Below are positions 15,085 to 57,303 of a stretch of 64,000 nucleotides of DNA, one piece after another; position 1 is the stretch's first letter, and each line of letters opens with the position of its first letter. The notes beneath the pieces are model-generated. The model saw only the letters and a program-made list of their open reading frames with translations. It made no database searches and had not been told where the DNA came from. Source of the stretch: a bacterium (GTDB lineage: Bacteria; Bacteroidota; Ignavibacteria; UBA10030); NCBI GenBank assembly GCA_043803945.1, contig JAZDJN010000061.1, forward strand, positions 83,182-147,181. Direction: 5' to 3'. Both the position numbers and the translations under genes were made by a program.

Positions 15085-15110
15085 GATTACTAAGGTTGAC
15101 CCTTTTATTA

Positions 15111-15268: not shown

Positions 15269-15297
15269 TTGTTAAATTTGGCGTCAACTTAAAATGA

Positions 15298-16462: not shown

Positions 16463-16507
16463 GTACGTCCTATTCACAATTGACTAATCTAATCACGATT
16501 TTGTGCA

Positions 16508-30267: not shown

Positions 30268-30268
30268 G

Positions 30269-31138
30269 TTATATCTCCCATTTCACAAGCAGGTCCTTGA
30301 TTTGACTGTAGCGAAACACCGGGCCATCTTTGCAGACGAAGTATGCACCAAATTGGCAATGGCCGCAAAGCCCGATCGCACATTTCATGTTTCGCTCCAT
30401 GGAGACATAGATTGAATCGGTCAGTACGCCGCGCTTCATCAACTCCATTGCTGTGAAGCGCATCATCACCTCAGGGCCGCAGACCATCGCTACCGTATCG
30501 GAAGGATCGAACGGTGATTTCCCGATGAGGTTTGTCACAACACCAACATTCCCCTTCCAACCGCTCATACCGCGGTCGACCGTCACATACACTTCAAGGT
30601 CGAACCGTGCCCGCCATTGTTCCAGCTCATCGCGATAGAGAATGTCAGACGGCGTTCGTGTTCCGTAGAGGAGAACTACTTTGCCAAACTTATCGCGTTC
30701 GGAAAGAATTTTATAGAGCGATGGCCGCAAAGGAGCAAGCCCAATGCCTCCCGCAACAATTACTACATCTTTCCCAAGCGCCTCATTGACAGGCCATGCT
30801 GAACCGAACGGTCCGCGCACTCCGACGGTATCTCCCCGCCGCAGCTTGCTCATGACCTTGGTCACGGTTCCCACTGCTCGCGTCGTGTGGACAAGCACCG
30901 AGGGATCTATCGGATCGCCGCTGATGGAAATAGGAATCTCGCCAACACCGTGCATATACACCATGTTGAATTGACCCGGTTTAAACGAGAACCCGTACGG
31001 CTGCTGCCTGGTATCAAGTTCGATGGTAAAGGTATCTTCTGTATCGCGTTTGAACCGCCGAATCTGATAGAGCCGTGGCGTCATTGGATTCATGGCAGAA
31101 TCAACCGCGGGATGATTTTTTTCAAGGACGGTCGCCAT
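30269..31138 (-). CDS. hydG: Group 3b hydrogenase gamma subunit (FAD/NAD(P), 2Fe-2S)
   Basis: [21 protein letters not shown] and [14 protein letters not shown]. Confidence 0.92.
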
Positions 31139-31583
31139 ATAAATCGAGAAGTTGTATTCTTGTGGATTCGAGTCGCTGCTCCATAATGTGAGCAAAGCGT
31201 TTCATTAATTCATAACCGAGTTTTGTATCCTGTTCGCACTTTCCCCGGAGGCATTTTCCATCCAGCGCAATTGCGCGAACAACATCCTGTGCTTTGGCAT
31301 CGAAGTGCCATTGATACGGAGGCAGTAACCATGACCAGCCGAGGATATCGCCCTCTCCAATGGTCTCGATGGTAATGGCACCTTTTTGTGGCATCATGAT
31401 TTCCAGAGCAACCCTTCCCTGCCTGATCAAATAAAATTGATTGGCCTCTTCTCCCTCGTGAAAGATATGATGCCCGGCATCAAAACGAACATTCGATGAA
31501 CAACCTGTGATGAGCTCGATGTGAGCAGGATCCAGACCTTTAAAAAATGCATGCTCCTTCAGAATGCGTTCTAGCGTTTCCAT
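31122..31583 (-). CDS. Stand-alone cyclic-nucleotide-binding (Crp-like) domain protein
   Basis: IFHEGEEANQFYLI..GRV and GDILGWSWL; no HTH domain. Confidence 0.88.
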   Translation of the reverse strand: METLERILKEHAFFKGLDPAHIELITGCSSNVRFDAGHHIFHEGEEANQFYLIRQGRVALEIMMPQKGAITIETIGEGDILGWSWLLPPYQWHFDAKAQDVVRAIALDGKCLRGKCEQDTKLGYELMKRFAHIMEQRLESTRIQLLDLYGDRP

Positions 31584-31603
31584 CCAAATCCTCCTTTAGG
31601 TAA

Positions 31604-32770
31604 TTAAATAGTGACGCTGCTAGATTGGCTTTGACGAATAACGTTAACTTCTTCCGTGATATCAATCCCTACCGGACACCAGGTAATACAGCGTCCACAA
31701 CCAACGCATCCGAAGGTACCAAACTGATCGACCCAGCTTGAAAGCTTGTGGGTTAACCATTGACGATACCGTGCCCGTGCCGAAGGACGGACACTGCCGC
31801 CATGGATATAAGAGAAATCCATCGTAAAGCATGAATCCCATCTCCTGTTGCGCGAGGCCTCATCACCGGAGAGGTCCGTGACATCCTCGACTGTCATGCA
31901 GAAACAGGTAGGGCACACCATCGTGCAATTCGTACACGTGAGACACCGGGCTGCTGCTTTTCCCCATTCAGGGTGTTCGAAGTTCGACTGCAGGAGATCC
32001 TTCAAGCCCTCCGTTTGAATTGAACGCCCCATCTGGCTTGCTGCTGCGGCCACCAGGGACTGTGCTTTTGCATTCTCTGCATCCGAAGCTTGTGTTGCTG
32101 ATACAACATCAACAAGCTCCTTACCCATTTCACTGCCAGCCTCAATCGTGAAATAATGAGATCCATTCTCAAGAATTTCTGTCAGCGCAAGATCAAATCC
32201 ATCACGGGCTTTTGGACCGGTATTCATCGATGCGCAGAAGCATGTGTTTCCTGCTTTTGTGCAGTTCACCGTGATGATAACAAGCTTTTCCCTTAACGAT
32301 TGATAATAGGGATCCTTATATTCTCCGGAGTTGAAGACTTTATCCTGAATCCGGATCGCCTCGAGTTCACAAGGCCGCACACCGAAGAATGCATACTTCG
32401 TTTCATTTCCACCAGCACCACTGATTTCGCCAGAGAGGATTAATTCTTTTCCATTCTTCTTTGCCGTCAACAGCGTGAGCCTGGGTGGGAAGAGGAATTT
32501 CTTCCAGGCATAAGGGCCAACCGTATAATCAAACAGTGCTTTGCTTTCGCTCTTCTGCAGATGATACGTACCCGCTTCTTGTTCATCCGTCCATCCTTCG
32601 GGCAGGTCATTAACCGAAGCAATTTCATCATAGACGATGGAGCTATCCCTCACCATCGGACCGATGACCGTAAATTTCTGTTGCCGCAGCACCTGGATGA
32701 GCGTATCGAGTTTGGAATAATCGAGTCTAGAGACCATATGATCGTGTGAGATTTTGTTGTACAGATCCAT
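31604..32770 (-). CDS. hydB: Group 3b hydrogenase beta subunit (4Fe-4S, AsrA-like)
   Basis: [25 protein letters not shown] and [12 protein letters not shown]. Start uncertain. Confidence 0.9.
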
Positions 32771-32808
32771 GTTCCCATCGCCGTGAAATCGCGCGATGGA
32801 AGAATGAC

Positions 32809-33459
32809 TTAGATTGAAATAAATTGGTCCTTCTTCATTTTGCATACCGGACACTCAGGCGTTGTGCCGGAAGTGATAATGTATCCACAGTCGGGACAAA
32901 CCTTCACAGCATTTTTTGCGAAGCTAACCTGACCATCATGTTCCATCGGATATTGGAGCAATTCGACATGGCGCTTCTCAACCTCCAGCATTTGTGTAAA
33001 GAGAGCAATGCCTTTCTCAAATCCCTCTTCTTTTGCCTGACGAATCCAGTTGAGCTTGGTCGAGTTTCGCTCGAGGATTTCTGTGTTATATGCATTTTTT
33101 AAACACTGTTGAATGGTCCCAACCTTTACGGGGGAAATTGACGGAGGTTCAGGATGAACGCCGAGACTCTCGAGAAGGGCTGTAAGTTGTGTTGCGTGTA
33201 TTTGTTCTGAGCGAACTATTCCTTTAATCATTGCCGCAATTGCTGGTTTCTTCTCTTGTTCAGCATGGGCGGCAAATTGCTGGCACCACGAGGCACGTTT
33301 TAATGCGGCCTCATAGGCCACCGTAAGATTTTTGACTGATGCAGGGTAGAGTGGCTGTTTTTCTTCCTTCCCTTTGGTGCAACCCGGGAGTATCAACACT
33401 GCCACTGCTATACTCACAATGAGTGAGAAGGTTATTAACTCAAACGATTTTGGATTCAT
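32809..33459 (-). CDS. Rubrerythrin-like protein with a lipoprotein signal peptide
   Basis: LPGC lipobox, EQIH and EKRH, and a C-terminal rubredoxin-like CPDC...CPVC. Confidence 0.78.
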   Translation of the reverse strand: MNPKSFELITFSLIVSIAVAVLILPGCTKGKEEKQPLYPASVKNLTVAYEAALKRASWCQQFAAHAEQEKKPAIAAMIKGIVRSEQIHATQLTALLESLGVHPEPPSISPVKVGTIQQCLKNAYNTEILERNSTKLNWIRQAKEEGFEKGIALFTQMLEVEKRHVELLQYPMEHDGQVSFAKNAVKVCPDCGYIITSGTTPECPVCKMKKDQFISI

Positions 33460-40113: not shown

Positions 40114-40563
40114 TTAAAGTCTTTCTCCACCCGATGATGGGTTAACGAGAACATTTTCGACGACCTGTCGGATAAGCTCTACATTAATCGGTTTATAAAA
40201 GACATACTTACTGAGTTTCTCGATTGCGAGTTCGACATCCGGCTTGGCTTGTGAATAGCCGCGAAGGATGACCATTGGAACCACGGAAAGAGATTCTTTC
40301 AGTACAGTCACCTGCCGGAGAATATCACTTGAAAATGAATAGAGGTCGATGAGAAGAAGCTGGGGATTTGCTTCATGGATGCGTGCAGAGAGTTTCTCTA
40401 ATTTTGTTTCGCATTCAACTTCGTAACGATCTTCGAGCAGCATTTGAAGGCTTTGTGCGAGCATAGGATCAGGGCTAAAGATCAGTACTTTCTTTCGTTC
40501 GATCTTCTGACTTATTTGCACCTGTTGGCCCATTATTTGAGTTTGATTGGCAGGTTGAATCAT
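40114..40563 (-). CDS. Atypical single-domain response-regulator receiver
   Basis: KVLIF, LLLIDL and YKP; AGGAG ribosome-binding site before ATG 40563. Confidence 0.65.
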   Translation of the reverse strand: MIQPANQTQIMGQQVQISQKIERKKVLIFSPDPMLAQSLQMLLEDRYEVECETKLEKLSARIHEANPQLLLIDLYSFSSDILRQVTVLKESLSVVPMVILRGYSQAKPDVELAIEKLSKYVFYKPINVELIRQVVENVLVNPSSGGERL

Positions 40564-40592
40564 AGCACTATGCTTCTCCTGCCTAAAAACCT

Positions 40593-40607
40593 TCAAGATT
40601 TATGCCA
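40593..40607 (-). promoter_or_regulatory. Putative sigma54 promoter for the receiver gene
   Basis: TGGCATAAATCTTGA (GG-N10-GA); TTCTCA and TTCCCA half-sites at 40680 and 40702. Confidence 0.6.
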
Positions 40608-40844: not shown

Positions 40845-40881
40845 AAAAAAAAGCGCGGAGCAGATATTCGCTCCACGCTTT
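40845..40881 (-). terminator. Intrinsic terminator after multiheme gene 1
   Basis: AAAGCGCGGAGC...GCTCCACGCTTT hairpin with an A8 run. Confidence 0.75.
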
Positions 40882-40905: not shown

Positions 40906-43086
40906 TTATTTCATTAATGTCATCTTCTTTGCAGCAACAAAATCGCCAGCTTCAATGCGATAGATATACACACCGCTGGAGACTGTCTTGCCATCATCGG
41001 TCCTGCCATTCCACATTGCACGATGGTTACCGGCAGACATTTCCTGATTCACCAATGTCGCAACGACCCGGCCCATAATATCATAGACCACGAGCTTCAT
41101 CTTGGCTGCTTTTGGCAGAGCAAAGCGGATCTCGGTCGTTGGATTGAATGGATTTGGATAGTTCTGGCTTAACTCATAGACCTGAGGAATTGGCATTGGG
41201 TCCATTTGAGTATTTGTCACAACGCCGAATGAAGCACGAAGCAGAGCAACAGCATACTTCGGATTATGAACTCCCCCGCTCATATCATACTTCACGTAAT
41301 TGTAATTAAATACCGCAGCCAGCATCGTTGCATAATTGAGTTTCTTTGTACTGGCCCAATTTTTTGCTGCAATTGAATCGACAGCATTTGCTCCAATGAC
41401 CTCTCCTGCAGCGTCGACCGGTAAATTGGCTTTTAACTTTTTCATCAAGCCATTGATTTCAGTCATGGATCCATCGATCTTGCCATTTCCATCATAATCA
41501 TACATGGCTTTGATATCATCAAATTTTGTAATAGGACCATGGCATTCAACACATCCTTCAACCTTTTCAACACCGTTCTCGACCATTCCCATGGCGTGGT
41601 CACCCTGCAGCTTCGTATAGGTCGGAGTTACCTTTCGTTCCGACATATGACATGCCACACATCCATCCTTCACGTTGCCATGTGTTGATACGCCTTCCAA
41701 TCCCATACCAAAATCCCATCCCTGAGTTCCCATGATCATGTCAGCCTGAGAACTGTAGTGAGGATAAAATCGTGCACTGAATCGGCCGGCTTGATTTTTC
41801 ACAGTCGTAGCGTAGTTCGCCCTGCCACGATGACAGTTCATGCAGAGTTGACCCTTACCCCCTTTTCCAGAAGGAATTTTGAACCCATTTGCGAGTGTGT
41901 CAATCTTCATATATCGCAAGAGGTACGGATTTGAATTTCCGTGACCATCATGACAGACTGCGCATGAGATAGACTTGAAATTCGGATCTACTTTTGCAGA
42001 ATCAGCTGTCGTTGTTGCGCGTCCGGCTGACCAGGCAGACGTAAATGAGATAAATGCAGAGCCATTGTGACAAGGCCAGCATCCCGATCGATTCGATTCA
42101 CCAGCGCTCAGCCGCATATTCGAGTGAGCAGATTCTCTCCAATAATATCCTATGCTGTGTGAACGTGGCGAATCGTGACATTGATTGCACACACCAGCAT
42201 CCGCACTTACACTAATAGCCGATTTACTGCCATTCGTTGCATGGTTCGCAGCGGGGCCGTGGCAAGTCTCGCAACCGATTGATCCTGTTGCTATTAATGC
42301 AGGTGAGAGCATTTTATAAACTGTTGAATCCTTATATCCAATCAAGTAATCTCCACCCGCCAACGGCAGTCCCTTCCACCATGTAGAATCAAATGATGCG
42401 GGCTGACCCTGATTGGCGATCCAGCCAAAATTGCCATTATTGGTCTTTGACTCCCAGCCTGTTGTATGACATTTGAAGCAGCTCTTTGTATAGACACCCT
42501 TATATCCGGTGCCTTCGCTATTCTCTAATTGTCCTGTCATTCCACGCGCAAAGATGGTTGCATGCACAGAGGATTTCCATGTAGTGACATTTGCCTGAAA
42601 TGCTGGAACAGCGAAAGTGTGGCATCCGCACGAAGCTTGTGTGGAGGTAAAGCCAGCATAGGTACTGGCAAAAAGAGTATCGTTGTGGGTTTTTATTCCG
42701 TTTGCACTTACCTGGACGATATAGCGTCCTGCAAGATCAGGTTTGAATGTAACGGAGTCTTTGGTAGTGCTGCTGAAAGAAACGTTTGATCCAGGTGGTT
42801 TCTCTACAAATGTCCAGGCCAAAGTCGTTACCTTTGTGGCTCCGGAACCAACCGTATCAGCTTTCAGGTACATTAACATTCCAACAGGTATCGTTCGCAG
42901 GCCTGTAGAAACATAGTTTGGAGTACCGGCAGGCGGAGATGAAAAATTAGGATATCCTGAGCTTCTCATTCCAGGAGACATCGCCACCCTCTTCACTGCG
43001 ACAGCCTGTGCATATGCTTCTACCATCATTCCGGTAAGAAGCAATACGACAAGTAAAAAACTCAAAACTCGAATCGCTCGTTTCAT
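40906..43086 (-). CDS. Secreted multiheme cytochrome c with a T9SS-type C-terminal domain (paralog 1)
   Basis: Sec signal ending in AYA-Q, Ig/PKD-like segment, 8 CxxCH plus 1 CxCH, DMSGGVHNPKYA, and QNYPNPFNP...SSGVYIYRI...KKMTLMK. Confidence 0.9.
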   Translation of the reverse strand: MKRAIRVLSFLLVVLLLTGMMVEAYAQAVAVKRVAMSPGMRSSGYPNFSSPPAGTPNYVSTGLRTIPVGMLMYLKADTVGSGATKVTTLAWTFVEKPPGSNVSFSSTTKDSVTFKPDLAGRYIVQVSANGIKTHNDTLFASTYAGFTSTQASCGCHTFAVPAFQANVTTWKSSVHATIFARGMTGQLENSEGTGYKGVYTKSCFKCHTTGWESKTNNGNFGWIANQGQPASFDSTWWKGLPLAGGDYLIGYKDSTVYKMLSPALIATGSIGCETCHGPAANHATNGSKSAISVSADAGVCNQCHDSPRSHSIGYYWRESAHSNMRLSAGESNRSGCWPCHNGSAFISFTSAWSAGRATTTADSAKVDPNFKSISCAVCHDGHGNSNPYLLRYMKIDTLANGFKIPSGKGGKGQLCMNCHRGRANYATTVKNQAGRFSARFYPHYSSQADMIMGTQGWDFGMGLEGVSTHGNVKDGCVACHMSERKVTPTYTKLQGDHAMGMVENGVEKVEGCVECHGPITKFDDIKAMYDYDGNGKIDGSMTEINGLMKKLKANLPVDAAGEVIGANAVDSIAAKNWASTKKLNYATMLAAVFNYNYVKYDMSGGVHNPKYAVALLRASFGVVTNTQMDPMPIPQVYELSQNYPNPFNPTTEIRFALPKAAKMKLVVYDIMGRVVATLVNQEMSAGNHRAMWNGRTDDGKTVSSGVYIYRIEAGDFVAAKKMTLMK

Positions 43087-43200
43087 GAGCACCTCTTTGT
43101 TTGTGTTGATGGGAAAATATTTTTTTTGCAACCTCTCGAATCCGTCCAATCGAAGCGCTGATGTGATAGATTGAACGGTATCTGATAATCAACAAAAAAC

Positions 43201-43215
43201 TCAATAATTGTACCA
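43201..43215 (-). promoter_or_regulatory. Putative sigma54 promoter of multiheme gene 1
   Basis: TGGTACAATTATTGA (GG-N10-GA); ATACCA-ATAA-TGAGAA at 43332-43347. Confidence 0.6.
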
Positions 43216-43449
43216 ATTAAAGGATGGGAGAGAATGTTGAAATTGAGGTGAAAATCAAGGATTTATTGTTGAGTTAGTATTAAGAATTCTTATTTTTCGA
43301 GAAAACAGTTCACCTTTCTCTTACCTCTGCAATACCAATAATGAGAATATCCCATAATAGTGCGGATAATTAATGAATCATCATTTCTGAGTGAGTAGAT
43401 ATTCTATAGAAATGAAGAATAACTATTTCAACTACTGCCTATTGAAAAT

Positions 43450-43485
43450 AAAAAAGCGTGAAGCGAAAATCTCACTCCACGCTTT
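43450..43485 (-). terminator. Intrinsic terminator after multiheme gene 2
   Basis: AAAGCGTGAAG...CTCCACGCTTT hairpin with an A-run; resembles the terminator at 40845. Confidence 0.7.
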
Positions 43486-43506
43486 GAAAATACTAGACAG
43501 AACTGC

Positions 43507-46341
43507 TTATTTCATCAGCATCATCTTCTTCGATGCTGCGAAATCGCCAGCTTCGATGCGATAGAGATACACGCCGCTGCTGACGATGTTACCTCTGCTG
43601 TCTTTGCCATTCCATACGACATTCTTATAACCTGCTGTCATATGATCGTCAATGAGAGTGGCAATCTTATTACCATTGATGCTATAGATTGTCACCTTCA
43701 CCTGCGATTCCTTCGGCAATGCAAAGGAAATCTGCGTCGATGGATTGAATGGATTTGGATAGTTCTGATTGAGTGCAAACTCGGTTGGGATTCCCTGTTC
43801 GAGATCTGAGACTCCTGTCAGAACTGCACCTGATGTAGTATACGCACTCTGGTTGCCAGCATTGTCAACGGCTTTGATCTTGTAGACATAGCTGCCGGTT
43901 TGAACCAGCTTGTCGATATAGGTGAGGTCTTTGACGTTATCAGCGATTGGTGAGGAGGTCGCTGGGTCGAAATTCGCATTGGTACCACGATAGATAACAT
44001 ATTTTTCGATATCATCATCCACGGGTGATGGAGCATCCCAACGCAATGAGACCTGATTACGCAGCGATGCGGCAACAAATGCTGCCGGTGCGGTCGGTAC
44101 GATATTGTTAACGGAGTATCCGCTGTCGATTGGCGACATATAGGCAGTTGCATTATCTGCGCTGAGTCCGGCAACCATAAATTTCGTCCAGTACATTCCC
44201 TTGGTCTTTGTGGAATCGTAAATCGTCGGGACGATAACACCATATTGTGCCATTCCTATCGCACTGACTTCGGCAACTTGTGTCCAAACCATTCCAGCCA
44301 TAGTGAACTGATTTGAACCGGAGCCCGCTGATGCGAGCATATCGGAATAGTTCTTCACATTCTTCACAGTAGACGTTGAGAATGGGAATGGATCCTGACG
44401 ATAGACGACATACTTTATGACTTTACCGAAGGCAGCCTTTTCAGCCGGGAATTGATTCCATACAAGCTGTAAGCGCTTGCCATTGTCCGTTGGAACGTCG
44501 GCGATCGGAGATGCAATCTTCGCTGCACCGGCGCTAAGTTTCAATTGTTCGATGGAGGACTTTAACAATCCTTCGGCATATTTGAAGTTGTGCACACCAT
44601 AGCTAAGATCATAATCGACAAACTGATAATTGTACGCTGCGGCTTTTTCGGCAGTTGTCAATGGTCGTTTCAAAACACTTGGAACTCCGGTCCATCCCTG
44701 ATAGGTGTATGTATCAGTTGGATATATGTTTGTGATACCGGCAGAATCGCGTTTCGGCATCAATTTTCCCAGTTCTTCTAACATCTTCTTCGTCTTGTGC
44801 TGTGTTAACTCGACGAACTCCAGCGTCACAACACCATGACACTCTTTACAGCCAACATAATTCAGAACTGTATCACCCTTAGCCACTCCGCCTTTATACA
44901 CGACGTTGAAGGTATGGCCGCCAACTTTATTCAACAATGTATCCGGTTTTGCATATGTCGGATCGTAGGTAGGTGATGGTGCCATGTGGCATGCAACACA
45001 GCGCTCTTCGATTTTAGAATGCGAACTGTTTTCATATGTATAGCCGGGGAGTTCAAAACCAGAAACCAGACTAACGCTAGCTACAAGCTTGGATGTTGTC
45101 ATCTCAGGTGCATCTGCACCGAGAAGCATCGAGCCTTGATGAGCATGGTGTAAACCACGACTACTCATGCGAGTAATATGACATCCTGTGCATGCATCGG
45201 CAACGGTTTTTCGTCGCAGTTGATATTCATTTTTATTGTTATGAGGATCGTGACATGCCTGGCAAGTGATTCCTTCAGGATTCAGATAACTTACTTTTCC
45301 TGATGCCGGAACCGGCAGAGGATTGCCATTAATAATCACATCAACAAATCCCTGAGCAGTATGGCACTGGACGCATTCACCACGAGCTGTGTATTGGAAC
45401 TGAGCACCTTCAAATGTGGAAACTGCGTGGCCTGATGCTTCCCAGGAATATCCCTTAGGATGGCGATCTGAAGAATAATGGCAAGGAGCGCAGACATCTG
45501 ACGAGTAGGTAACATCAAGTTTAGTATTACCATGGACTGGAGATTTCACATGCTCGCTTGCAGGACCATGACAATTTTCGCACTGGATACCGCTCAATGC
45601 CATAACCTGTGGCTTAGCTGCAACCAATGAATCGTAAACTCCAGGATGATTGACCCCGGGAATTTTAAAATTGTTGAGCTTTACGAGATTGTTGTAGCTG
45701 CCATTAACCACTGTCGTGTCACTTGAGTAGCCTACTGAGTGGCAGGACATGCAGGATGCCGTGAAGTGGCCACCTGTTTCATCAAGCTTTCTGCGTACGG
45801 CAGTTGCATGGTTTGTCTTTTGCCAGTCAGTGAAAACTGATGGATTTAAATTATGGCAAGCACAATTCGGCGGAATGGTACCGATTGTAGCCGTACTGAG
45901 GCCAGCGCCAAGATAATTGGCAGCGACGACCTTCATTGTAGCTGCTGTCCCGATACCAGTCTTGGTGGTGGGAGTCATTGTAACAGTGTACTCTCCGGCT
46001 GCATTCGGTTTGAACCAGATAATAACTTTATTATTTCCAGCCACAAACTCGGTTGGTGTAACAGCGCCAAAAGGTCCTGAAATGGTCCATGTTGCACTGA
46101 CCATTTCTTCTAAGGTAGACGCATAAGCATCTAACAATCCTTTAGTAGCTTTTGCTTCCAGAACCACACGCTCAGAGACGCCTACTGTTCTTAAACTAGA
46201 TGTGCGTTCATTTGCGTTGGTTGATTTAAACCGGTCGGGAATACTTTTTACTTCGATCTTACCGGTAATTTGCGCGATAGCCATCCCGGTAAAAGCGACC
46301 AAAAGGATACATAAGACAGCAAATTTGTAACCCCGCATCAT
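43507..46341 (-). CDS. Secreted multiheme cytochrome c with extra Ig/FN3 domains and a T9SS-type C-terminal domain (paralog 2)
   Basis: GGAGG ribosome-binding site, signal ending in AIA-Q, 8 CxxCH plus 1 CxCH, DLSYGVHNFKYA, FN3-like LRW...YVIYRG...YKIKAVD, and a QNYPNPFNP C-terminal domain. Confidence 0.9.
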   Translation of the reverse strand: MMRGYKFAVLCILLVAFTGMAIAQITGKIEVKSIPDRFKSTNANERTSSLRTVGVSERVVLEAKATKGLLDAYASTLEEMVSATWTISGPFGAVTPTEFVAGNNKVIIWFKPNAAGEYTVTMTPTTKTGIGTAATMKVVAANYLGAGLSTATIGTIPPNCACHNLNPSVFTDWQKTNHATAVRRKLDETGGHFTASCMSCHSVGYSSDTTVVNGSYNNLVKLNNFKIPGVNHPGVYDSLVAAKPQVMALSGIQCENCHGPASEHVKSPVHGNTKLDVTYSSDVCAPCHYSSDRHPKGYSWEASGHAVSTFEGAQFQYTARGECVQCHTAQGFVDVIINGNPLPVPASGKVSYLNPEGITCQACHDPHNNKNEYQLRRKTVADACTGCHITRMSSRGLHHAHQGSMLLGADAPEMTTSKLVASVSLVSGFELPGYTYENSSHSKIEERCVACHMAPSPTYDPTYAKPDTLLNKVGGHTFNVVYKGGVAKGDTVLNYVGCKECHGVVTLEFVELTQHKTKKMLEELGKLMPKRDSAGITNIYPTDTYTYQGWTGVPSVLKRPLTTAEKAAAYNYQFVDYDLSYGVHNFKYAEGLLKSSIEQLKLSAGAAKIASPIADVPTDNGKRLQLVWNQFPAEKAAFGKVIKYVVYRQDPFPFSTSTVKNVKNYSDMLASAGSGSNQFTMAGMVWTQVAEVSAIGMAQYGVIVPTIYDSTKTKGMYWTKFMVAGLSADNATAYMSPIDSGYSVNNIVPTAPAAFVAASLRNQVSLRWDAPSPVDDDIEKYVIYRGTNANFDPATSSPIADNVKDLTYIDKLVQTGSYVYKIKAVDNAGNQSAYTTSGAVLTGVSDLEQGIPTEFALNQNYPNPFNPSTQISFALPKESQVKVTIYSINGNKIATLIDDHMTAGYKNVVWNGKDSRGNIVSSGVYLYRIEAGDFAASKKMMLMK

Positions 46342-46493: not shown

Positions 46494-46508
46494 TCAATAT
46501 TTATGCCG
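46494..46508 (-). promoter_or_regulatory. Putative sigma54 promoter of multiheme gene 2
   Basis: CGGCATAAATATTGA (GG-N10-GA); TTCTCA-AGAA-TTAGAA (46588-46603) and TTCTCA-CTTT-TTAGTA (46611-46626) upstream. Confidence 0.6.
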
Positions 46509-47160: not shown

Positions 47161-47418
47161 TCAGTTCAGCCTGCCGCTGACATCCAGGCCTTCCGTCTGT
47201 AATTCAGATTTTTCATCAACCTCTTCGATCGACAATTCACGCAATTTCCTGTATAACGACGACAAGCTGATGCCGAGCAGTTTGGCAACCTTGCGCTTAT
47301 CGTTTCCATTTACTTTTAAAGATTCAATAATGAGTGATCGTTCGTATACCCTGACTGAATCTTTAAGTGAACCTGCAACAAATATTTCATGTTCTGATTG
47401 TGTTCTTGGCCGCAGCAT
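47161..47418 (-). CDS. Stand-alone Fis-type HTH (HTH_8) protein
   Basis: AGGAG ribosome-binding site; SLKDSV..YERSLI..SL....[20 protein letters not shown]. Confidence 0.85.
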   Translation of the reverse strand: MLRPRTQSEHEIFVAGSLKDSVRVYERSLIIESLKVNGNDKRKVAKLLGISLSSLYRKLRELSIEEVDEKSELQTEGLDVSGRLN

Positions 47419-47487: not shown

Positions 47488-47502
47488 GCAAGTAATGTGC
47501 CA
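47488..47502 (-). promoter_or_regulatory. Near-consensus sigma54 promoter of the HTH gene
   Basis: TGGCACATTACTTGC; TTCTCT-AAGA-TTAGAA (47541-47556) and TTCCCG-GAAG-TGAGAA (47618-47633) upstream. Confidence 0.8.
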
Positions 47503-47828: not shown

Positions 47829-49196
47829 CTAGCGAGTCGGGATTTCGAGTTCTTCCATCTTCCGGTAGAGAGATGAAAGGCTGACACCGAGAGCATTTGC
47901 GGCACTCTCTTTATTCCTTTCATTCTCGGCGAGTACTCGCTCAATATAGGATTTCTCGAAATATTTGACCGCATCCCGCAGTGTTCGTTTGCCTATCTGT
48001 GGTCCGGTGGAAAACTTCGATGTATTCTGACGCAAAGAATCGGGCAAATGCTCCAGACCGATCATCGATGAATCGCAGAAGATCACTGCCCGCTCAATCA
48101 CATTTTCCAGCTCGCGAACCTCTCCCTTCCAATGATAGTTGATAAGAACGCTCATCGCTTCATTGGTAAAGCCGTGAATGGGACGGTTCATCTCTGCGCG
48201 GTAGATTTCAAGAAAATGCTGGCTGAGCAGCGGGACATCCTCGGGACGTTCCGTGAGCGAGGGTAGATTAATTTCTACAACATTCAATCGATAGTACAGG
48301 TCCTCACGGAATTTCTGGTTCTCCACTTCTTGATGAAGATTGCGATTGGTTGCTGCAATAATCCGTACATTCACATTAATCGGATCGGTCATACCAACCG
48401 GTGTAATTTCTTTCTGCTCGATTGCCCGCAGCAATTTTACCTGCAGGTGAAACGGAATCTCGCTGACTTCATCCAGAAAGACTGTCCCGCCATCGGCAAC
48501 TTTGAAGAGTCCTTCCTTATCGGTCGTAGCACCAGTAAACGATCCCTTCTTATGGCCGAAGAGTTCGCTCTCAAAGAGTGTCTCAACGATCGCTCCGCAG
48601 TTGATGGCTACGAATCGTTTATTCTGCCGGTTGCCATTATAGTGAATCGCGCGGGCGACAAGTTCTTTACCAGTTCCGCTTTTCCCGGTGATCAGGACAG
48701 TGCCTTCACTGGTGGCAACCCGGCGAATGATTTCAAATACACTGTTCATGCTCTGGCTTTGACCGATAATCTTGTCGAAGTCATACGTACGATTGAGTTC
48801 CTGCCGCAGCAAGCTGTTTTCCAGAACCAGTTCCTTGTGCTGAATGAGTTTCTTCACCCTGTGGATCAGGTCATCGAAATCGATCGGCTTTAAGACATAG
48901 TCGTATGCACCTTTACGCAATGCAGCGATGGCCGTCTCAATCGAGCCAAATGCTGTGATAATGATGACAAATGTCTGCGGTGTTCGCCTGGTAATTTGCT
49001 CCAGAAGCTCGACACCGCGGATCTCCGGCATCTCGATGTCTGTAATGACGACATCATAAGGCTCCCGCTCCTGCATCGTGATCGCCTCACGCCCATTCGC
49101 GGCCTCGGCCACGGTATATCCTTCTTTTCTCAGAATGAAGCTGAGCGATTCCCTGATAATCTGCTCGTCATCGACGACCATAATACGTGGTACCAT
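47829..49196 (-). CDS. NtrC/AtoC-family sigma54-dependent response regulator
   Basis: Receiver (VVDDE, TDIEMP, KP), [44 protein letters not shown] and a Fis HTH. Confidence 0.96.
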
Positions 49197-50606
49197 CTAT
49201 ACTCCTTTCACCGGAAAATATACTTCCATCGTTGTACCTGCTCCAGGTTGACTTTCAACGACGATATCACCGCCAAACTTTTTTACAATTCCATAGCTGA
49301 CCCAGAGTCCAAGCCCCGTGCCCTGCCCCACCTGTTTTGTGGTGAAGAAGGGTTCAAAGATTTTTTCCATATCCTCCTGCGAGATACCGCGGCCGCTGTC
49401 GCGCACCATCACTTCCACCCTGTCTGCAATATAACGGGTGTTGATCGTAATTGTGCCGGGCTTGCTTTCGAGAGCGTCAACGGCATTCATTAAAATGTTA
49501 ATGAACACCTGTGTGAGCTGGTCGGGAACGACGTTCAACAAGGGAAGGTTCTCTGCGAAGCTGAGGAGGAACTGGATGTTCTTCACTTTTTTCCCATACT
49601 GAACGATGTTTAACGCCTCGCGAACGATATGATTAATGTCCGTAGATTTAATCACATGAGTCGATGGCCGGGAAAAATCGACAAGGTCGCGGATAATGCG
49701 TGCGATGCGAGTGATCTGCTTTTTGATAAGCTCCAGTTTCTCTTTCGCCGCCTCGTCGTTCGTTGTGCGTTGAATGACCTGCACCAACGATGAGATGGAC
49801 GTCAGCGGATTGCCAACCTCGTGAGCAATGCCCGCGGCCAACGTTCCGATGCTCTCCATCCGCTGCGAACGCACCAACTGCTGCTCGAGCAGTTTCTGTT
49901 CGGTAATATCGCGGTGTGCACCTAAAAATCCTTTCACGACTCCGGCTGTATCGACGATGGGAGAGATGACCAACTCCGTGTGAAAAGGAGTTCCATCCCT
50001 CCTTAGGTTCTCAAGTTCTCCTACCCATACTTTTCCGGTCATGATATGTTCCCAAACAGATTTCCAGAATTCCCTGGAGTGCTTGCCGCTGCTCAGGATT
50101 CTTGGATTCTTCCCAATCAATTCCTCTTTTGAATAGCCGCTTGATTTTTCGAATGCCGGATTTACCATCACCATTCTGCCATTCGCGTCGGTGATCTGGA
50201 TGGGATTCACGGTATGCTGGACAACATTGGAAAAGCGGAGCAGATCCAACTCCTTCTTTTTCAGCTCAGTAATATCACGTGCAATGATTACCTGATATTT
50301 TTCCCCATGATCGTTCAAATGCCGGATATCAAGATCAACATCGAGAAACAGCTTATCCGTTTTTAGGAAGCGTGACTCGTACCCCTGGATCGTGCTGCCA
50401 TTCTGCAACACAGCCGAGAGTGCCTTCCAAGCGGTTTCTTCGACGATCTGCTCGAACGGGATCTGCCGTAAATCCTTATCCGAATAACCGGTTCCTTGGC
50501 ACGCTGCGAGATTCATATCGACTATTCTCAGTTGAGCGTCGAGAATGAAAATCATGTCGGGGAAGAGGTCAAACACCCGATCTATATTAATACTCGAAAT
50601 AGTCAC
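49197..50606 (-). CDS. Cytoplasmic PAS-PAS sensor histidine kinase
   Basis: Two PAS domains, AHEVGNPL, NAVDA, DSGRGI, FEPFFTTK and GTGLGL; no transmembrane segment visible. Confidence 0.93.
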   Translation of the reverse strand: MTISSINIDRVFDLFPDMIFILDAQLRIVDMNLAACQGTGYSDKDLRQIPFEQIVEETAWKALSAVLQNGSTIQGYESRFLKTDKLFLDVDLDIRHLNDHGEKYQVIIARDITELKKKELDLLRFSNVVQHTVNPIQITDANGRMVMVNPAFEKSSGYSKEELIGKNPRILSSGKHSREFWKSVWEHIMTGKVWVGELENLRRDGTPFHTELVISPIVDTAGVVKGFLGAHRDITEQKLLEQQLVRSQRMESIGTLAAGIAHEVGNPLTSISSLVQVIQRTTNDEAAKEKLELIKKQITRIARIIRDLVDFSRPSTHVIKSTDINHIVREALNIVQYGKKVKNIQFLLSFAENLPLLNVVPDQLTQVFINILMNAVDALESKPGTITINTRYIADRVEVMVRDSGRGISQEDMEKIFEPFFTTKQVGQGTGLGLWVSYGIVKKFGGDIVVESQPGAGTTMEVYFPVKGV

Positions 50607-52005: not shown

Positions 52006-55000
52006 CTATTTAAGAAGGAGCATCCGCACCGACCCGGAGAAGCCGGAAGATTCGAGTCTACAAAAATAGACACCTGAAGGAAGGATCCCGACATTCCAGG
52101 AAAATCTGTAATGTCCAGCTTGTAGGATACCTTCAACAACTGTCGCGACTCTCTTCCCATCTATTGAATAGATGGCGACGCGGGCATGCGTTTCTTGCGG
52201 GATATCGAATGAGATTGCCGTAGAGGGATTAAACGGATTTGGATAGTTCTGGAAAAGCTTGAGCGATCGCGGGATTCCCGGATATTCCTCAACTGATGTC
52301 ACTTGCGGTCGGATCGAGAAACTCCACACGATGCTCCAATCACTCCACTCCGCGCCATTGGTGGAGCGAACCTTCCAATAATACTTTGTTTTTTCCTGAA
52401 GCCCTGATATCGTCAATGAGGTTGCAAGCACACCCTGTTCATTGACAAGCAAAGGATTAAAATTCTTATCTGGGGAAACTTGAACTTCATAGCGCGTAGC
52501 ACCTGGGACAGATTTCCAGGTGAGCGTGGGATTTTTTCCGGCTTCCAAATCGGCTCCCTCCAAGGGTGTAAGAAGGTCAGGAACAGCGAGTCTATTCGAA
52601 CCAGTCGTGAAACTCCACCGCTGCGACCAGGAACTGACATGTGTTGTATCCAATGCATTCACACGCCAGTAGTATTTTGTTAACGGCAGTAATTCACTCA
52701 GGCTGTGGGTAGCCTTGGTTACTCCTTTTATTTCGACAAGGTTATCGCTAAAGTTTGCACTCGTCGAATACTGAATTGTATAAGTAAGCGCTCGTGGAGA
52801 AACAGTCCATGCCAATGTTGGCGTGATTGATTGTCCTGTTGCACCATCAGAAGGAGCGACAAGGCTGGGAGCAGCAAGTTGATCATCCCACGTTGTAAAT
52901 CTCCGCACGTCGGACCAGTCGCTTGTATCAGTACTGCTCAAAGCCAGGATCCGCCAGTAATATTGAGTTGTGGCCTTCAGACCAGACACGATGGTAAAAT
53001 TCCCCGAAACGATCTCTCGAGTAAATAGAAGTGTACTGAACGATTGAGTAAGTGATATCTGGAATACATAGGTGTTTGCACCTTCAACCGTTGTCCATTC
53101 GAACCGCGGTTCTGTCGAAATATCCGTCGCCCGATCCTCGGGAGAGAGCAATACTGGAATCGAGAGTTTACTCGACCCGGTAGTGAACTCATACTCCTTT
53201 GACCATTCACTCGACGATGCAGTTCCTGTTGCTCGTACTCTCCAGTAATAGGTTTGATTGAAGAGGAGCCCGGAGAGGCTGGCCGATGTTGAGAGAATCC
53301 CCTGTCGTTGTTCAACGTTTGTGTTAAAGGATTTATTGGTCGAGACCTGAAGCTCATAGCTCAATGCGCCATCGATTTTAGACCATTCAAGTTTGGGATT
53401 GATCGAAATTCCCTCTGCACTATTTGAAGGAGAGATCAGCGATGGCGTAGAAAGGAGACTCGAGCCGGTCGTGAAACTCCACTCACTACTCCATACTGTG
53501 TATCCCGTCGAATCGGAAGCACTGACTCTCCAGAAATAGTCTGTACCGGATATCAGTCCCGTTACCTGATGTGTGGTGGATGTTAAATCTTTCTTCTCAT
53601 AAATGATGGTTTTAAAATTTCTGTCTGTGGCGATCGCTACCCCGTACAGTTTTGCACGGAGAACGGCTGTCCAGTTCAGCGTGGGTGAGGTTGAGACTCC
53701 TTGCGCGCTGTTTGAGGGTTGGATAAGATTTGGGGCTGCAATTTTTCCGGAACCTGTTGTGAAACTTTGAGCGTCAGTCCATCCACTCAATGTTGCTGTG
53801 TCTTTTGCCTGGATCCTCCAGTAGTACTTTGTCTCGGGCAGAAGTCCGATGACTGAGTACTGTGCTTTCTCGATTCCCTGGACTTCGATTGTCGAACCGA
53901 TTTTAAAATCCCGATCGATAGAATACTGCAAGGCATACGATTTCGCTTTGAGAATCACTTCCCACTGGAATGTCACTTCCAATGGAACATCTCTCACATT
54001 ATTTTCCGGGAACAGAAGTTTTGGCTTTGCAAGAACTGCTGCACCAGTCTTGAAACTGTTTTCAGTCGACCAATTACTAATGCTGGTCAAGCTCGCAGCT
54101 AGAACCCGCCAATAATATTGTGTGTTTGGCTCTAGTCCTTTTAGTTGAAGCGATGTCGAGGCTTTTACTATGGTATCAATAACAACAAGTGAAAATTTTA
54201 AATCCTTCGTCAGTTGAACTCGATAGGAATCGGCATTAGGTACGAGAGCCCATTCAAGAGCCGGGCCTAACTCGAGATTATCAGATTTATCTGAGGGTTT
54301 AATTAATGCGGGGCTTGCGAGTTGTGCACTCTTGGTTTTAAAACTCCAATCGGTCGACCAATTACTGGCACCAACAGCGTTAAAACATCGGACACGCCAG
54401 TAGTACGTGACTTCCGGTAACAAACCTGGAATAGTGCATGAGGCATTTGTGAGTCCGGTTGAATCTTTTGCCAGCGTTGAAAAATTTCTGTCAGTACTAA
54501 TCTGAACCTGGTACCGGAGCGCCCCTGTGACAGGAGACCAGGAAAGCAAGACCGGTGTAGATGCATCTCTGCTATTATCAGTTGGCAGGAGTAATTGAGG
54601 AGAAGCGATTACTGCATCAACCGTTGTGAAACTCCACTCTGAAGAAACCGGCCCCTCTCCGTTCGGGCCAATTCCATACACGCGCCAATAGTATGTCGTA
54701 TTGTTGGAAAGTCCTGATAATGCAAAAGAAGTCCTAATTACTCCCGTGGTATCCATTATCAGCGGATTGAAATTTTCTTTAGTAGCTACCTGAACGCGGT
54801 ACGATAACGCTCCTTTGGCGCTTCCCCATTCAAGAGATACATTGATAGGAACCTTGGTTGCATTGCTGTCAGGTAACATCAAAGAAACACGCGCAGGTTT
54901 TCCTGTTTCCGTAGAAAAATTCCATGTTGTCGACCAATCACTCGTACCGCCATTTGTGGTTACGCGAACATGCCAGTAATACTTTTGATCATAAGAAAGC

Positions 55001-57303
55001 TTTACATCCCAGAATGATTTCGTGAGTGAAGAGTTCGATGCTACGATAGTATGAAATTTATCATCTGTGGCAACCTGAACCTCATAAACCGATGAAGGAT
55101 CGTTATTGGGACTCCAGGCTAACGTTACACTCACCGGAAGGCCGCTGACATCTGAGGATGGAATGGGTGATGTCGGAGCTGCAGGCTTTGTTGAGGCGGT
55201 CGTGAAATAATTAGCCGACGACCAACCGCTTGATCCTCCCTCGTTTTCAGCACTGACTCTCCAGTAATATGTTTTCTCCCCCTTTAAGCCCGTGACTGCA
55301 TGAGATTGAGATGTAGATATGAGAGACGTCTCATTGATGAACAACTGATCTTGGGGGAATTTTGAATCCTCCGCCATCTGAACAGAATAGGAAGTTGCAC
55401 CGTTCACCGAACTCCAAGAGAGTGTTGTGCCGGGGGGAACGATGACCGATTTATTCGTTGGAGAAACAAGATCAGGAGCTTTTGCCGGCGGAGCGATCTG
55501 AGTTGTGAAGGTCGCGCTTGTCCAGTTGCTTGAACCTGTTGCATTCACCGCTCGTACACGCCAATGGTATGATGTCCCTTCAGTCAGTCTGCTGAGACTT
55601 TCAGACGTGCTTCTCAAGCGAGGTTTATCTGTCACATCAATGGAAGAAAAATCTGATTTTGTCGAGACCTGAAGATCATAGGTGTCCGCACCAATCACCG
55701 CATTCCATTTCAGCGTCGGGCTAGTCGATATCCCCGTTGCACCATTGGATGGTTCTACAATTGTTGGTGTTGCGGGCAACGCAAGTTGAGTTTTGAAACT
55801 TGCGGTCGAAGACCAGTCGCTCGACCCAATTGTATTCGTCGCTCTGACCCGCCAATAGTAGGATGTGTTTTCAGTAAGCTGAGTCAAATTTTCGGAAGTA
55901 GTATTTAGTTTCTGCTTATCGGTCACATCGACAGAAGAAAAATTAGATTTTGTCGATACCTGGAGGTCATAGGTATCGGCGCCTACAGCAGAATTCCATT
56001 TCAACGTCGGGCTTGTCGATACTTCTGTCGCTCCATCGGCGGGTTCTAGGATTGTTGGTGTTGCCGGCAAGCTAAGTTGAGTTTTGAAACTTACCGTCGA
56101 AGACCAGTTGCTCGATCCAGCGCCATTTGTGGCTCTCACCCGCCAATAATATGTCGTGTTTTCTGTTAAGCGGCTAAGGTTATCCGATGTACTTTTCAGG
56201 CGCTGCTTATCGAGAACATCGACCGAAGAGAAATCTGATTTTGTGGAAACCTGAAGATCGTAGGTATCCGCACCGGTCACTTCACCCCATTTCAACGTCG
56301 GACTCGTTGACACACCTGTTGCACCATCTGATGGTTCTATAGGTGAAGGAATAGCAGGGAGTCCGAGTGCTGTGGTAAATTTCCATGCGGATGACCAGCC
56401 GCTCGTTGTGCTTCCATCGGTGGCATTCACCCGCCAGTAGTACATCGTATTGTTCTGTAAGGAGGTGAGTGTCAATGATGGCGTCGCTGAAGTATGCGTA
56501 CTGGCTCCGCTGAAATTGCTGCTCGTCGCCACTTCTATACTATAGCTTGTCGCTCCTGCAACTGAGTTCCATTGCAATGTGACGTTGACTGGTACGCTTG
56601 TAGAACCATCGGCCGGAGATGTATGTATCGGTGTGGCCATCGCCGGAGCTTGTGTCGTAAACGATCCTTCAACCCAGGCACTTTCCAGGTTTTCAGCAGA
56701 GACAGATTTTACTCGATAATAGTATTGCGTCGAGGGTGTAAGATTATCAACAGTAAACGATTGTGTTGCTGTAGAACCTCCACCAACACTTTTCGTGAAC
56801 TTATTATCACTCGCTATTTCAATGGTGTATGAAACTGCACCTTCTGCCGTGCTCCATTGAAGGGACGCAGATGATGCAGTTATAGTTGGAACTCCCAGGA
56901 CCGGGGGATCAGGAGGAAGAGGCGGAGATCCTAGAGTAATAAAATTATCTTGGCTTGGATTACTGGTTTTTCCTGCTACAGTGACATCAACCCGGTAGTA
57001 ATATGTTGTACCGCTCTGCAGGCCTGTAATCGTGACCGATGTATTTGTTGTTGAGCCGGAAGTGACTAGATCTTGGAAATTACTTTTCTTTGATACTTCG
57101 TATGAATATGATGTGGCACCAGTCACCACACTCCAGCTAATATCGGCTGAAGAACTGGTGATATTCGATGCATTGTTCAGAGTTGGAGGATTCGGTTTAT
57201 TCCCTTGACCATACAGTGTGCGAGTTTGCATCGACACACCGATGAGCATGCAGATAAGAAACAATGATGATCGTGGGATGCTAGTACCTCTCCAAAACTG
57301 CAT
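52006..57303 (-). CDS. Large fibronectin type III repeat protein with a T9SS-type C-terminal domain
   Basis: 17 repeats ending in Y[YHF][WY][RHK][VI], mostly followed by S.W..F.T; QNYPNPFNP...SGVYF..L C-terminal domain; N-terminal signal-like segment. Confidence 0.9.
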   Translation of the reverse strand: MQFWRGTSIPRSSLFLICMLIGVSMQTRTLYGQGNKPNPPTLNNASNITSSSADISWSVVTGATSYSYEVSKKSNFQDLVTSGSTTNTSVTITGLQSGTTYYYRVDVTVAGKTSNPSQDNFITLGSPPLPPDPPVLGVPTITASSASLQWSTAEGAVSYTIEIASDNKFTKSVGGGSTATQSFTVDNLTPSTQYYYRVKSVSAENLESAWVEGSFTTQAPAMATPIHTSPADGSTSVPVNVTLQWNSVAGATSYSIEVATSSNFSGASTHTSATPSLTLTSLQNNTMYYWRVNATDGSTTSGWSSAWKFTTALGLPAIPSPIEPSDGATGVSTSPTLKWGEVTGADTYDLQVSTKSDFSSVDVLDKQRLKSTSDNLSRLTENTTYYWRVRATNGAGSSNWSSTVSFKTQLSLPATPTILEPADGATEVSTSPTLKWNSAVGADTYDLQVSTKSNFSSVDVTDKQKLNTTSENLTQLTENTSYYWRVRATNTIGSSDWSSTASFKTQLALPATPTIVEPSNGATGISTSPTLKWNAVIGADTYDLQVSTKSDFSSIDVTDKPRLRSTSESLSRLTEGTSYHWRVRAVNATGSSNWTSATFTTQIAPPAKAPDLVSPTNKSVIVPPGTTLSWSSVNGATSYSVQMAEDSKFPQDQLFINETSLISTSQSHAVTGLKGEKTYYWRVSAENEGGSSGWSSANYFTTASTKPAAPTSPIPSSDVSGLPVSVTLAWSPNNDPSSVYEVQVATDDKFHTIVASNSSLTKSFWDVKLSYDQKYYWHVRVTTNGGTSDWSTTWNFSTETGKPARVSLMLPDSNATKVPINVSLEWGSAKGALSYRVQVATKENFNPLIMDTTGVIRTSFALSGLSNNTTYYWRVYGIGPNGEGPVSSEWSFTTVDAVIASPQLLLPTDNSRDASTPVLLSWSPVTGALRYQVQISTDRNFSTLAKDSTGLTNASCTIPGLLPEVTYYWRVRCFNAVGASNWSTDWSFKTKSAQLASPALIKPSDKSDNLELGPALEWALVPNADSYRVQLTKDLKFSLVVIDTIVKASTSLQLKGLEPNTQYYWRVLAASLTSISNWSTENSFKTGAAVLAKPKLLFPENNVRDVPLEVTFQWEVILKAKSYALQYSIDRDFKIGSTIEVQGIEKAQYSVIGLLPETKYYWRIQAKDTATLSGWTDAQSFTTGSGKIAAPNLIQPSNSAQGVSTSPTLNWTAVLRAKLYGVAIATDRNFKTIIYEKKDLTSTTHQVTGLISGTDYFWRVSASDSTGYTVWSSEWSFTTGSSLLSTPSLISPSNSAEGISINPKLEWSKIDGALSYELQVSTNKSFNTNVEQRQGILSTSASLSGLLFNQTYYWRVRATGTASSSEWSKEYEFTTGSSKLSIPVLLSPEDRATDISTEPRFEWTTVEGANTYVFQISLTQSFSTLLFTREIVSGNFTIVSGLKATTQYYWRILALSSTDTSDWSDVRRFTTWDDQLAAPSLVAPSDGATGQSITPTLAWTVSPRALTYTIQYSTSANFSDNLVEIKGVTKATHSLSELLPLTKYYWRVNALDTTHVSSWSQRWSFTTGSNRLAVPDLLTPLEGADLEAGKNPTLTWKSVPGATRYEVQVSPDKNFNPLLVNEQGVLATSLTISGLQEKTKYYWKVRSTNGAEWSDWSIVWSFSIRPQVTSVEEYPGIPRSLKLFQNYPNPFNPSTAISFDIPQETHARVAIYSIDGKRVATVVEGILQAGHYRFSWNVGILPSGVYFCRLESSGFSGSVRMLLLK
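55500..56360 (-). repeat. Three high-similarity FN3 units with a 291-bp period
   Basis: TTTTGAAACT occurs at 55791 and 56082; GADTYDLQVSTKS[DN]FSS occurs three times. Confidence 0.85.

Follow-up and report, generated by a model that had tools for sequence, protein, structure and literature searches.

How might a diderm bacterium place a respiratory multiheme cytochrome on its surface, and what would such a protein do there? The question is raised by two genes, here called A and B, in a 64,000-nucleotide stretch of a genome of the class Ignavibacteria (assembly GCA_043803945.1, contig JAZDJN010000061.1, positions 83,182 to 147,181; the whole stretch is hereafter called the window), each of which encodes a nine-heme cytochrome ending in a T9SS (type IX secretion system) sorting domain. 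With somewhat better than even confidence, we take A and B to be surface terminal reductases at the outermost end of the Ignavibacteria porin-cytochrome conduit. Evenly balanced, in our judgement, is the wider proposal that a reduced T9SS (SprA, PorV, PorU and PorZ, without the GldKLMN motor) passes folded nine-heme cytochromes, anchored in the manner of sortase substrates, as terminal reductases of the conduit in Ignavibacteria and in lineages labelled KSB1, Kryptonia and Marinimicrobia. The two genes are laid out as follows, with positions counted from the start of the window.

40906..43086, minus strand: gene A, 726 amino acids (aa)
Residues 1-26 of A: Sec signal with Gln at +1, judged by eye and from a modelled helix at residues 2-25
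Residues 28-141 of A: PKD-like domain
41209..42663, minus strand: heme core of A (residues 142-626), OcwA-like with nine hemes and a three-helix bundle
40909..41187, minus strand: T9SS type A sorting domain (tail) of A (residues 634-726), by TIGR04183 and fold match
43507..46341, minus strand: gene B, 944 aa
Residues 1-23 of B: Sec signal with Gln at +1, judged by eye
Between signal and heme core of B: Ig/PKD-like domain
44542..45924, minus strand: OcwA-like nine-heme core of B (about residues 140-600)
43807..44529, minus strand: Ig/FN3-type spacer of B (about residues 605-845), two beta-sandwich-type domains seen in predicted models only
43510..43788, minus strand: T9SS type A tail of B (about residues 852-944)

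Both open reading frames (ORFs) lie where the initial annotation had placed them, each with the Sec signal, Ig-like segment, eight CxxCH motifs, single CxCH motif and C-terminal domain described there. By sequence inspection, all 18 cysteines of A fall in heme motifs, as do those of B save one located in the signal peptide. The structure model of A (116-sequence alignment, pLDDT 90.3, hemes not included) consists of a PKD-like sandwich, a heme core closing in three long helices, and the tail; the N-terminal segment forms a beta-sandwich in the model and matches PKD domains (Z 8.6, rmsd 2.2-4.5, 81-96 aligned). The extra spacer of B, already noted in the initial annotation, spans about 240 residues and is of the Ig/FN3 type by Atlas models, in which residues 600-850 resemble the stalks of other T9SS-tailed proteins (TM 0.59-0.79); Pfam names no FN3 in those residues.

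The predicted kinship of the core with OcwA and OmhA was borne out, since the closest solved structures to A are OmhA of Carboxydothermus ferrireducens (6QVM; Z 16.4, rmsd 4.4, 356 aligned; profile search E 3.9e-17) and OcwA of Thermincola potens JR (TherJR; 6I5B; Z 15.6, rmsd 4.2, 348 aligned; E 1.4e-21). NrfA and the octaheme nitrite reductases rank after both, by sequence and structure alike, and match the C-terminal five-heme module with its helices (Z 12.9-15.1, rmsd 4.5-5.3, 262-271 aligned). As in OcwA and OmhA, the nine hemes follow one another in the same order, within a c554-like N-module and an NrfA-like C-module carrying the three-helix bundle; identity is about 24-26% over the aligned part, and the A/B family differs from both proteins in its diderm host, PKD-like domain, optional spacer and T9SS tail. 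MccA, also of the OcwA clade and possible kin, was not among the matches listed.

According to PMC6703420 (this and the other papers are cited here for the parts of them that were available), six hemes of OcwA are bis-His and one is His/Met ligated, while hemes 2 and 5 are open and lie beneath His-His pairs. A has nine conserved non-motif His residues (175, 282, 310, 321, 382, 443, 469, 497 and 607); since its model carries no hemes, we infer from alignment that seven of them are distal ligands and that His310 and His443 fall on the HH motifs of OcwA. As in OcwA, hemes 2 and 5 have CxxCH motifs, with His residues on HH 281/282 and HH 380/381. Among the 198 tailed relatives, the non-bonding distal His over these hemes is kept as His310 in 177 and as His443 in all, each placed by alignment with an uncertainty of one residue within its HH pair. 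The full pair over heme 5 is found only in B, whose His398/399 aligns with HH 380/381. At heme 9, the Met of OcwA is replaced by His469 (198/198), so that its His/Met ligation is not found here, and a near-invariant Arg422 (193/198), also unlike OcwA, occupies the position of the catalytic Tyr of NrfA. Heme 1 varies among the same relatives (CxxCH in 112, CxCH in 41, CxxxCH in 24, uncalled in 21); by its motif, the CxCH of A and B is a heme-1 variant.

Assignment to NrfA itself was rejected. The family shares the C-terminal five-heme module of NrfA and octaheme nitrite reductase but none of its catalytic motifs: CxxCK occurs in none of the 198 tailed relatives, neither KxQH nor KxRH precedes His443 in any of them (YGPH, FYPH, FGPH and similar strings are found instead), and Arg replaces the catalytic Tyr. 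Some relatives are named 'ammonia-forming cytochrome c nitrite reductase' by NCBI and others only 'T9SS domain protein'; from these motifs, the nitrite reductase label is probably wrong.

A and B had been described as tandem paralogs, and they do belong to one family. Over the core, however, they share only 26% identity, and a split with 99/99 support separates them in a FastTree tree of homologues; they are therefore distant subfamily members, and recent tandem duplication was rejected. The tree leaves out 97 close homologues and omits OcwA and OmhA, and is therefore unrooted and dates nothing. Each of the two tails has the other as its best or equal-best match (57%), and no conclusion on homogenisation between them was drawn, since further tails also match at 55-57%. 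The suggestion that the two proteins act at two different reaches is possible but unsupported; spacers appear or disappear at least 12 times over the family tree, and the cores of A and B are deeply divergent as well.

We then consider the tail. TIGR04183, the Por secretion tail model named in the initial annotation as a check, scores 42.6 bits in A and 32.7 bits in B against a cut-off of 23, whereas Pfam PF18962 is passed by A (30.0 vs 27) and narrowly not by B (26.4). The tail of A superposes on those of PorU (Z 10.7, rmsd 2.5, 89 aligned) and PorZ (Z 9.8, rmsd 2.7, 85 aligned). A and B thus resemble T9SS type A cargo (TIGR04183; tails of PorU, PorZ and RemZ) in having a Sec signal, Gln at +1 and a same-fold tail above the cut-off; they are unlike known cargo, listed in reviews as hydrolases, proteases and adhesins, and their host has no recognisable GldKLMN. 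PorU cleaves before the tail at T/E/D/N|G/A/S (PMC10202324). The linker of B contains a matching T|G site, and close relatives also have the pattern; as defined in this analysis, the pattern occurs in only 60 of 138 tailed ORFs of the genome. Genome-wide, 139 ORFs end in a T9SS tail motif, and SprA (2275 aa), PorU, PorZ and 18 PorV-family barrels all score above cut-off, alongside genes for the heme maturation proteins CcmF and CcmE (System I). SprA was present in 80/80 genomes tested, cytochrome-bearing or not, and its presence is therefore not discriminating. Genes for SprA, PorU, PorZ and PorV without GldKLMN are seen across the host genome (G000), at L001, L005, L013 and L162.

The tail accompanies the heme core throughout the family. 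A tail-containing query gave 430 matches at E <= 0.001 among 8000 candidates scored, and the tail is present in all 120 relatives listed (query included). A core-only query matches in 62 of the 401 genomes sampled from the phylum, of which 60 belong to the class of the host and 2 do not; the complete strong matches have the tail in 119 cases and lack it in 10 (seven short lipoproteins and three frameshift pieces), some genes being counted twice. By these sequence comparisons, the T9SS tail is a fixed feature of the family. A and B are its sole members in the host genome, which has no short lipoprotein form.

No porin or quinol oxidase gene is present in the 64-kb window, as the initial annotation had stated for the neighbourhood of A and B; the conduit operon is located on another contig, C3.

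G000:C3:32723-52190 (L024/L025): respiratory operon of 15 genes, with eight multiheme cytochromes of 4-19 hemes

Its genes encode a 13-heme/cytochrome b protein, a 19-heme cytochrome, cytochrome b, a NapC-like 6-heme cytochrome, an 8-heme cytochrome, NrfC/NrfD-like and Rieske/cytochrome b proteins, 11-heme and 4-heme cytochromes, a putative porin, a 14-heme cytochrome, a lipoprotein cytochrome and CcmF. The putative porin (467 aa) is recognised by its C-terminal Phe, its gene position and barrel-type Atlas neighbours at 0.92. Ignavibacterium album has a pcc cluster, IALB_1837-1839, with a 400-aa 14-heme periplasmic cytochrome and an outer-membrane cytochrome with atypical motifs (PMC4245776). 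The C3 trio of putative porin, 410-aa 14-heme cytochrome and lipoprotein cytochrome (CX3-4CH) stands in the same order and resembles this Geobacter-type Pcc, the match being to the published description (PMC4245776) and not by sequence. In known Pcc conduits the outer cytochromes are lipoproteins, whereas here an additional OcwA-type protein bears a T9SS tail. A and B would probably complete a C3-encoded conduit instead of replacing one.

The family and the conduit lipoprotein co-occur: of 401 genomes, 61 have both, 333 neither, 6 the conduit only and 1 the family only, and all 49 genomes with the full-length family form also carry the conduit lipoprotein. The porin is found in 58 of 61 family-positive genomes vs 7 of 19 family-negative ones, the latter being 19 of the 20 negatives listed, out of 339. 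Synteny points the same way: in L119, L130 and L138 the tailed gene lies directly 5' of the porin operon, and in L062, L088 and L151 it comes before the 13/19-heme genes. In L062 and L151, the window-like order of cytochrome and receiver protein continues into the 13/19-heme genes, with the receiver-like gene separating the cytochrome gene from the 13-heme/19-heme operon. The short lipoprotein form is directly 3' of the conduit lipoprotein in 7/7 same-class loci fetched, and table coordinates put 19/19 same-class short-form matches no further than about 1 kb from it. A complex prediction for the core of A with the C3 lipoprotein cytochrome, hemes omitted, scored 0.00 and speaks neither for nor against such contact.

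Signals flanking the genes are listed here, together with the neighbouring regulators.

43201..43215, minus strand: sigma-54-like -24/-12 site for A, relaxed pattern, 129 nt upstream
46494..46508, minus strand: sigma-54-like -24/-12 site for B, relaxed pattern, 167 nt upstream
40845..40881, minus strand: terminator-like hairpin and T run after A, related to that of B and not listed by the scanner
43453..43485, minus strand: intrinsic terminator after B, listed by the scanner
40114..40596, minus strand: receiver-like protein, having a sigma-54-like site of its own at 40607
47829..50606, minus strand: PAS histidine kinase and NtrC-type sigma-54 activator, gene order kept upstream in L062 and L066

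The initial annotation had given each gene its own sigma-54-like promoter. A relaxed site does precede each; neither has the strict consensus upstream, and that form was rejected for them. The relaxed pattern, YGGYA-N6-TTG[C/A], was chosen after the window had been inspected; of 80 upstream regions of homologues, 36 contain it (shuffled sequences average 0.7, with a maximum of 3, and the opposite strand has none), and 8 contain the strict motif (0.03 by shuffling). A sigma-54-like site also precedes the first gene of the C3 operon and its ccmF (genome-wide, 121 of 3929 ORFs have one), and RpoN is encoded in the genome. The related terminators that had been claimed hold as a hairpin-plus-T element 3' of both genes, although the automated scan picked up only that of B; scanning for sigma-70 promoters and terminators gave numbers at chance level (14 vs 16.1 and 5 vs 6.2). 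Judged from the genes, the PAS histidine kinase and NtrC-type activator are likely regulators of A and B.

In the mechanism that we propose, A and B would be exported by Sec and receive their hemes in the periplasm from CcmF/CcmE, and the folded holo-protein would cross the outer membrane through SprA/PorV by means of its C-terminal tail, the usual motor being missing; SprA passes folded proteins. The protein would then lose its tail and be fixed in place by PorU/PorZ, or be retained on a barrel. Electrons would pass from the quinone pool to the C3 oxidases (cytochrome b-multiheme, NapC-like, NrfCD-like and Rieske/cytochrome b), to periplasmic multihemes, to the 14-heme cytochrome in the porin and on to the lipoprotein cytochrome, a path drawn on the Geobacter-type Pcc model. 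By analogy with OcwA, A and B would accept them and hand them on, from hemes 2 and 5 (open and five-coordinate), to Fe(III) oxides, humics, flavins or electrodes. The observed motifs suggest that sigma-54 would switch on A/B and the conduit jointly. The genes, motifs, fold, co-occurrence and synteny are observed, and from them we infer export, anchoring, contact with the conduit, electron direction and acceptor. Of the surface electron-transfer scheme in the initial annotation, the extracellular role is retained on synteny, co-occurrence and shared sites, and the conduit is probably completed, not replaced.

Several observations weigh against this reading. A and B lie outside the porin-cytochrome cluster of their own genome, the conduit operon being on another contig, and a conduit-operon gene was found within 10 kb in only 8 of 78 named loci; these loci come from the best 80 of 316 confirmed relatives and were found with the closer alignment A3, as the diverse alignment A2 yielded no usable pattern, and therefore lean towards A-like members. 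The co-occurrence counts were taken among kin and overstate independence, and the six genomes with the conduit and without the family make the family dispensable for the conduit. The putative porin matches no Pfam family, and its single-sequence model has a pLDDT of 28. Ignavibacterium album has the pcc cluster yet showed no growth with Fe(III) or Mn(IV) oxides (PMC4245776), and therefore the acceptor may not be iron. The linker of A lacks the T/E/D/N|G/A/S pattern. The weightiest of these points concerns the motor. Of the machinery named for checking in the initial annotation, sprA, porU/V, PorZ and the heme maturation genes are in place, and the PorKLMN/GldKLMN motor and ring was not found: in the 100%-complete host genome, GldK scores below its cut-off and no GldL, GldM or GldN was found, the GldL and GldK searches having no positive control and very divergent GldKLMN homologues being able to escape. 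GldM was found in 0/38 same-class genomes and GldN in 0/4, with the control G219 scoring for both. T9GPred treats GldK, GldL, GldM and GldN as mandatory and returns 'T9SS is absent' for 5/5 Ignavibacteriota genomes (PMC10515386); the four are mandatory in TXSScan as well, and the host has no recognisable copies. In model Bacteroidota, the translocon is energised by motor and ring (PMC10202324, PMC12635249). With SprA, PorU, PorV and PorZ present and no GldKLMN found, export here would therefore need a reduced or unrecognised energiser.

The missing motor bears most directly on the alternative that A and B stay in the periplasm, their tail vestigial or used for docking, and either relay electrons from quinol oxidases to the porin complex or act as periplasmic reductases. 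Published predictors score T9SS absent in Ignavibacteriota (PMC10515386), and no solved or published c-type cytochrome passing SprA turned up in the literature searched. Yet SprA, PorU, PorV and PorZ are intact, SprA being kept in every genome tested, the tail is borne by 139 ORFs, and in Melioribacter roseus, a digester of microcrystalline cellulose, carbohydrate-active enzymes are depicted with the tail (PMC3534657); moreover, spacers, PKD domains and alternative surface-type tails suit a periplasmic relay poorly. We hold periplasmic retention to be improbable. Rather less improbable, but still unlikely, is a redox enzyme at the surface or in the medium whose substrate is soluble (nitrite, hydroxylamine, a different oxyanion or some organic compound), or that serves inward electron uptake. 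The two open heme sites are kept, and their conservation with the invariant His443 and the near-invariant Arg422 (193/198) points to a conserved bound substrate. OcwA itself turns over nitrite, slowly (kcat 1 per min), and hydroxylamine (PMC6703420), no CxxCK-type NrfA was seen in the host genome, and Ignavibacterium album combines the conduit with a lack of oxide respiration (PMC4245776). In contrast, the tailed relatives have no CxxCK and no KxQH/KxRH at the catalytic His, nitrite reduction requires no export, and the linkage is to a trans-membrane conduit and not to an adjacent NrfH-type anchor.

Least probable of the three, we think, is a released electron carrier or capacitor, soluble or matrix-bound, that touches the conduit transiently or serves partner cells. 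Some T9SS cargo is freed and not anchored (PMC10202324), A has neither the usual cleavage pattern nor a spacer, and tandem forms with 16-24 hemes occur among relatives. However, nine hemes would be spent on each protein, and the lipoprotein form of the module is fixed beside conduit genes, which suggests a tethered role. We continue to favour surface terminal reductases at the end of the conduit.

In the open literature, subscription journals lying outside the search, we found no description of a T9SS-tailed multiheme cytochrome in extracellular electron transfer, nor of the fusion and export route as a system; the core belongs to the OcwA-type surface cytochromes. OcwA groups with Gram-negative nonahemes, and an unassigned octaheme cluster includes Bacteroidetes (PMC7829351), so that the available part of that paper indicates a sequence family already glimpsed. 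The available parts of PMC9250108 and bioRxiv 2025.05.29.656830 leave a T9SS tail on such cytochromes unmentioned, those of PMC7399161, PMC3534657 and PMC11495043 discuss Ignavibacteria multihemes without it, and those of PMC11205867, bioRxiv 031039, PMC5492636 and PMC5596340 contain nothing on the A/B family. The word 'cytochrome' is absent from the available parts of the T9SS papers and supplement set examined on cargo. NCBI names already flag the T9SS tail on some family members. Enrichment of Ignavibacteria on anodes and under Fe(III) has been seen repeatedly (PMC7399161, PMC11495043), and the Melioribacter Fe(III) reductase is termed hypothetical in the genome paper (PMC3534657). The family is thus a concrete candidate and marker gene for Ignavibacteria extracellular electron transfer, and mislabelling as nitrite reductase or plain 'T9SS domain protein' may distort nitrogen- and iron-cycle inventories. 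If our reading is true, cofactor-loaded respiratory proteins would join the T9SS cargo list, respiratory cytochromes would have a third display mode beside lipoprotein export and filaments, the Gram-positive OcwA arrangement would have a Gram-negative counterpart, and type IX export would be seen running without its known motor. It makes SprA export without GldKLMN testable in a class scored as T9SS-lacking by current predictors, and suggests a way of displaying cytochromes on engineered cells.

Several variants were observed within the family, whose named loci come mostly from Ignavibacteria/Bacteroidota metagenome-assembled genomes, with Kryptonia, KSB1 and Marinimicrobia labels as well. The short lipoprotein form (L140-L146 and L148; 360-430 aa) consists of the NrfA-like module only, with 5-6 hemes, stands beside the conduit lipoprotein and makes up one clade (support 96), nearer B than A. 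In distant relatives the T9SS tail gives way to a lipoprotein anchor, choice-of-anchor D repeats, a tail of 50 residues or one containing TSP3 (with one cluster member labelled Verrucomicrobiae). Alternative C-terminal tails on the nine-heme core are found in P0222, P0233, P0239, P0223, P0241, P0244, P0258 and P0140; the tail types are TSP3 repeats with an F/Y-R ending, 50 residues ending near W..Y, and choice-of-anchor D (P0140). From their sequences, these may possibly be unrecognised sorting signals of other phyla with a role in surface sorting. P0121, P0137, P0138, P0141 and L052 are tandem or extended forms bearing 18-24 heme motifs, a few of which keep a terminal T9SS tail, and the homologues in L044, L053, L098, L125, L126, L131, L136 and L139 are broken by frameshifts or stops, perhaps through assembly errors or decay.

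Other candidate cargo and redox genes were also seen in the host. The product of L029:5515-6633 (G000:C80:9514-10632) combines a Tat-like leader, a C_GCAxxG_C_C domain (PF09719), two CxxCH motifs and a T9SS tail, and from these features is a possible second redox cargo, perhaps following a Tat-then-T9SS route. Within the window, a gene at 52006-57303, two genes upstream of the regulators, encodes a T9SS-tailed protein of fibronectin-III repeats (1765 aa), possibly an adhesin or stalk. A near-consensus sigma-54 site at 47488-47502 precedes a short Fis-type helix-turn-helix ORF (47161-47418) resembling the tail of the NtrC gene. To the left of the window, L026 (G000:C61:57900-67400) carries two NrfC/NrfD-like pairs, a 13-heme cytochrome, glycine-cleavage-H-like proteins and a kinase-like gene with one CxxCH.

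Finally, the initial annotation had electrons reaching A and B from co-regulated H2 and TCA genes. Sigma-54-like sites also lie before citrate synthase, hdrC and mvhA in the window (sites at 26760, 20380 and 13856), and these shared motifs suggest co-regulation of A/B with citrate synthase, hdrC and mvhA, not direct electron supply. Direct feeding is unsupported, as the hydrogenases, HdrABC, PFOR and TCA genes of the window are of cytoplasmic types and no export leader was seen on the hydrogenase small subunit; any link to A and B would therefore run via the quinone pool. Three cytoplasmic-type NiFe hydrogenase clusters, of NuoEFG-linked, Hdr-linked and sulfhydrogenase-like types, are found within 33 kb (456-5511, 12265-20080 and 28209-32854), and an SNF2/DrmD-like helicase gene (8205-11306) sits among them.

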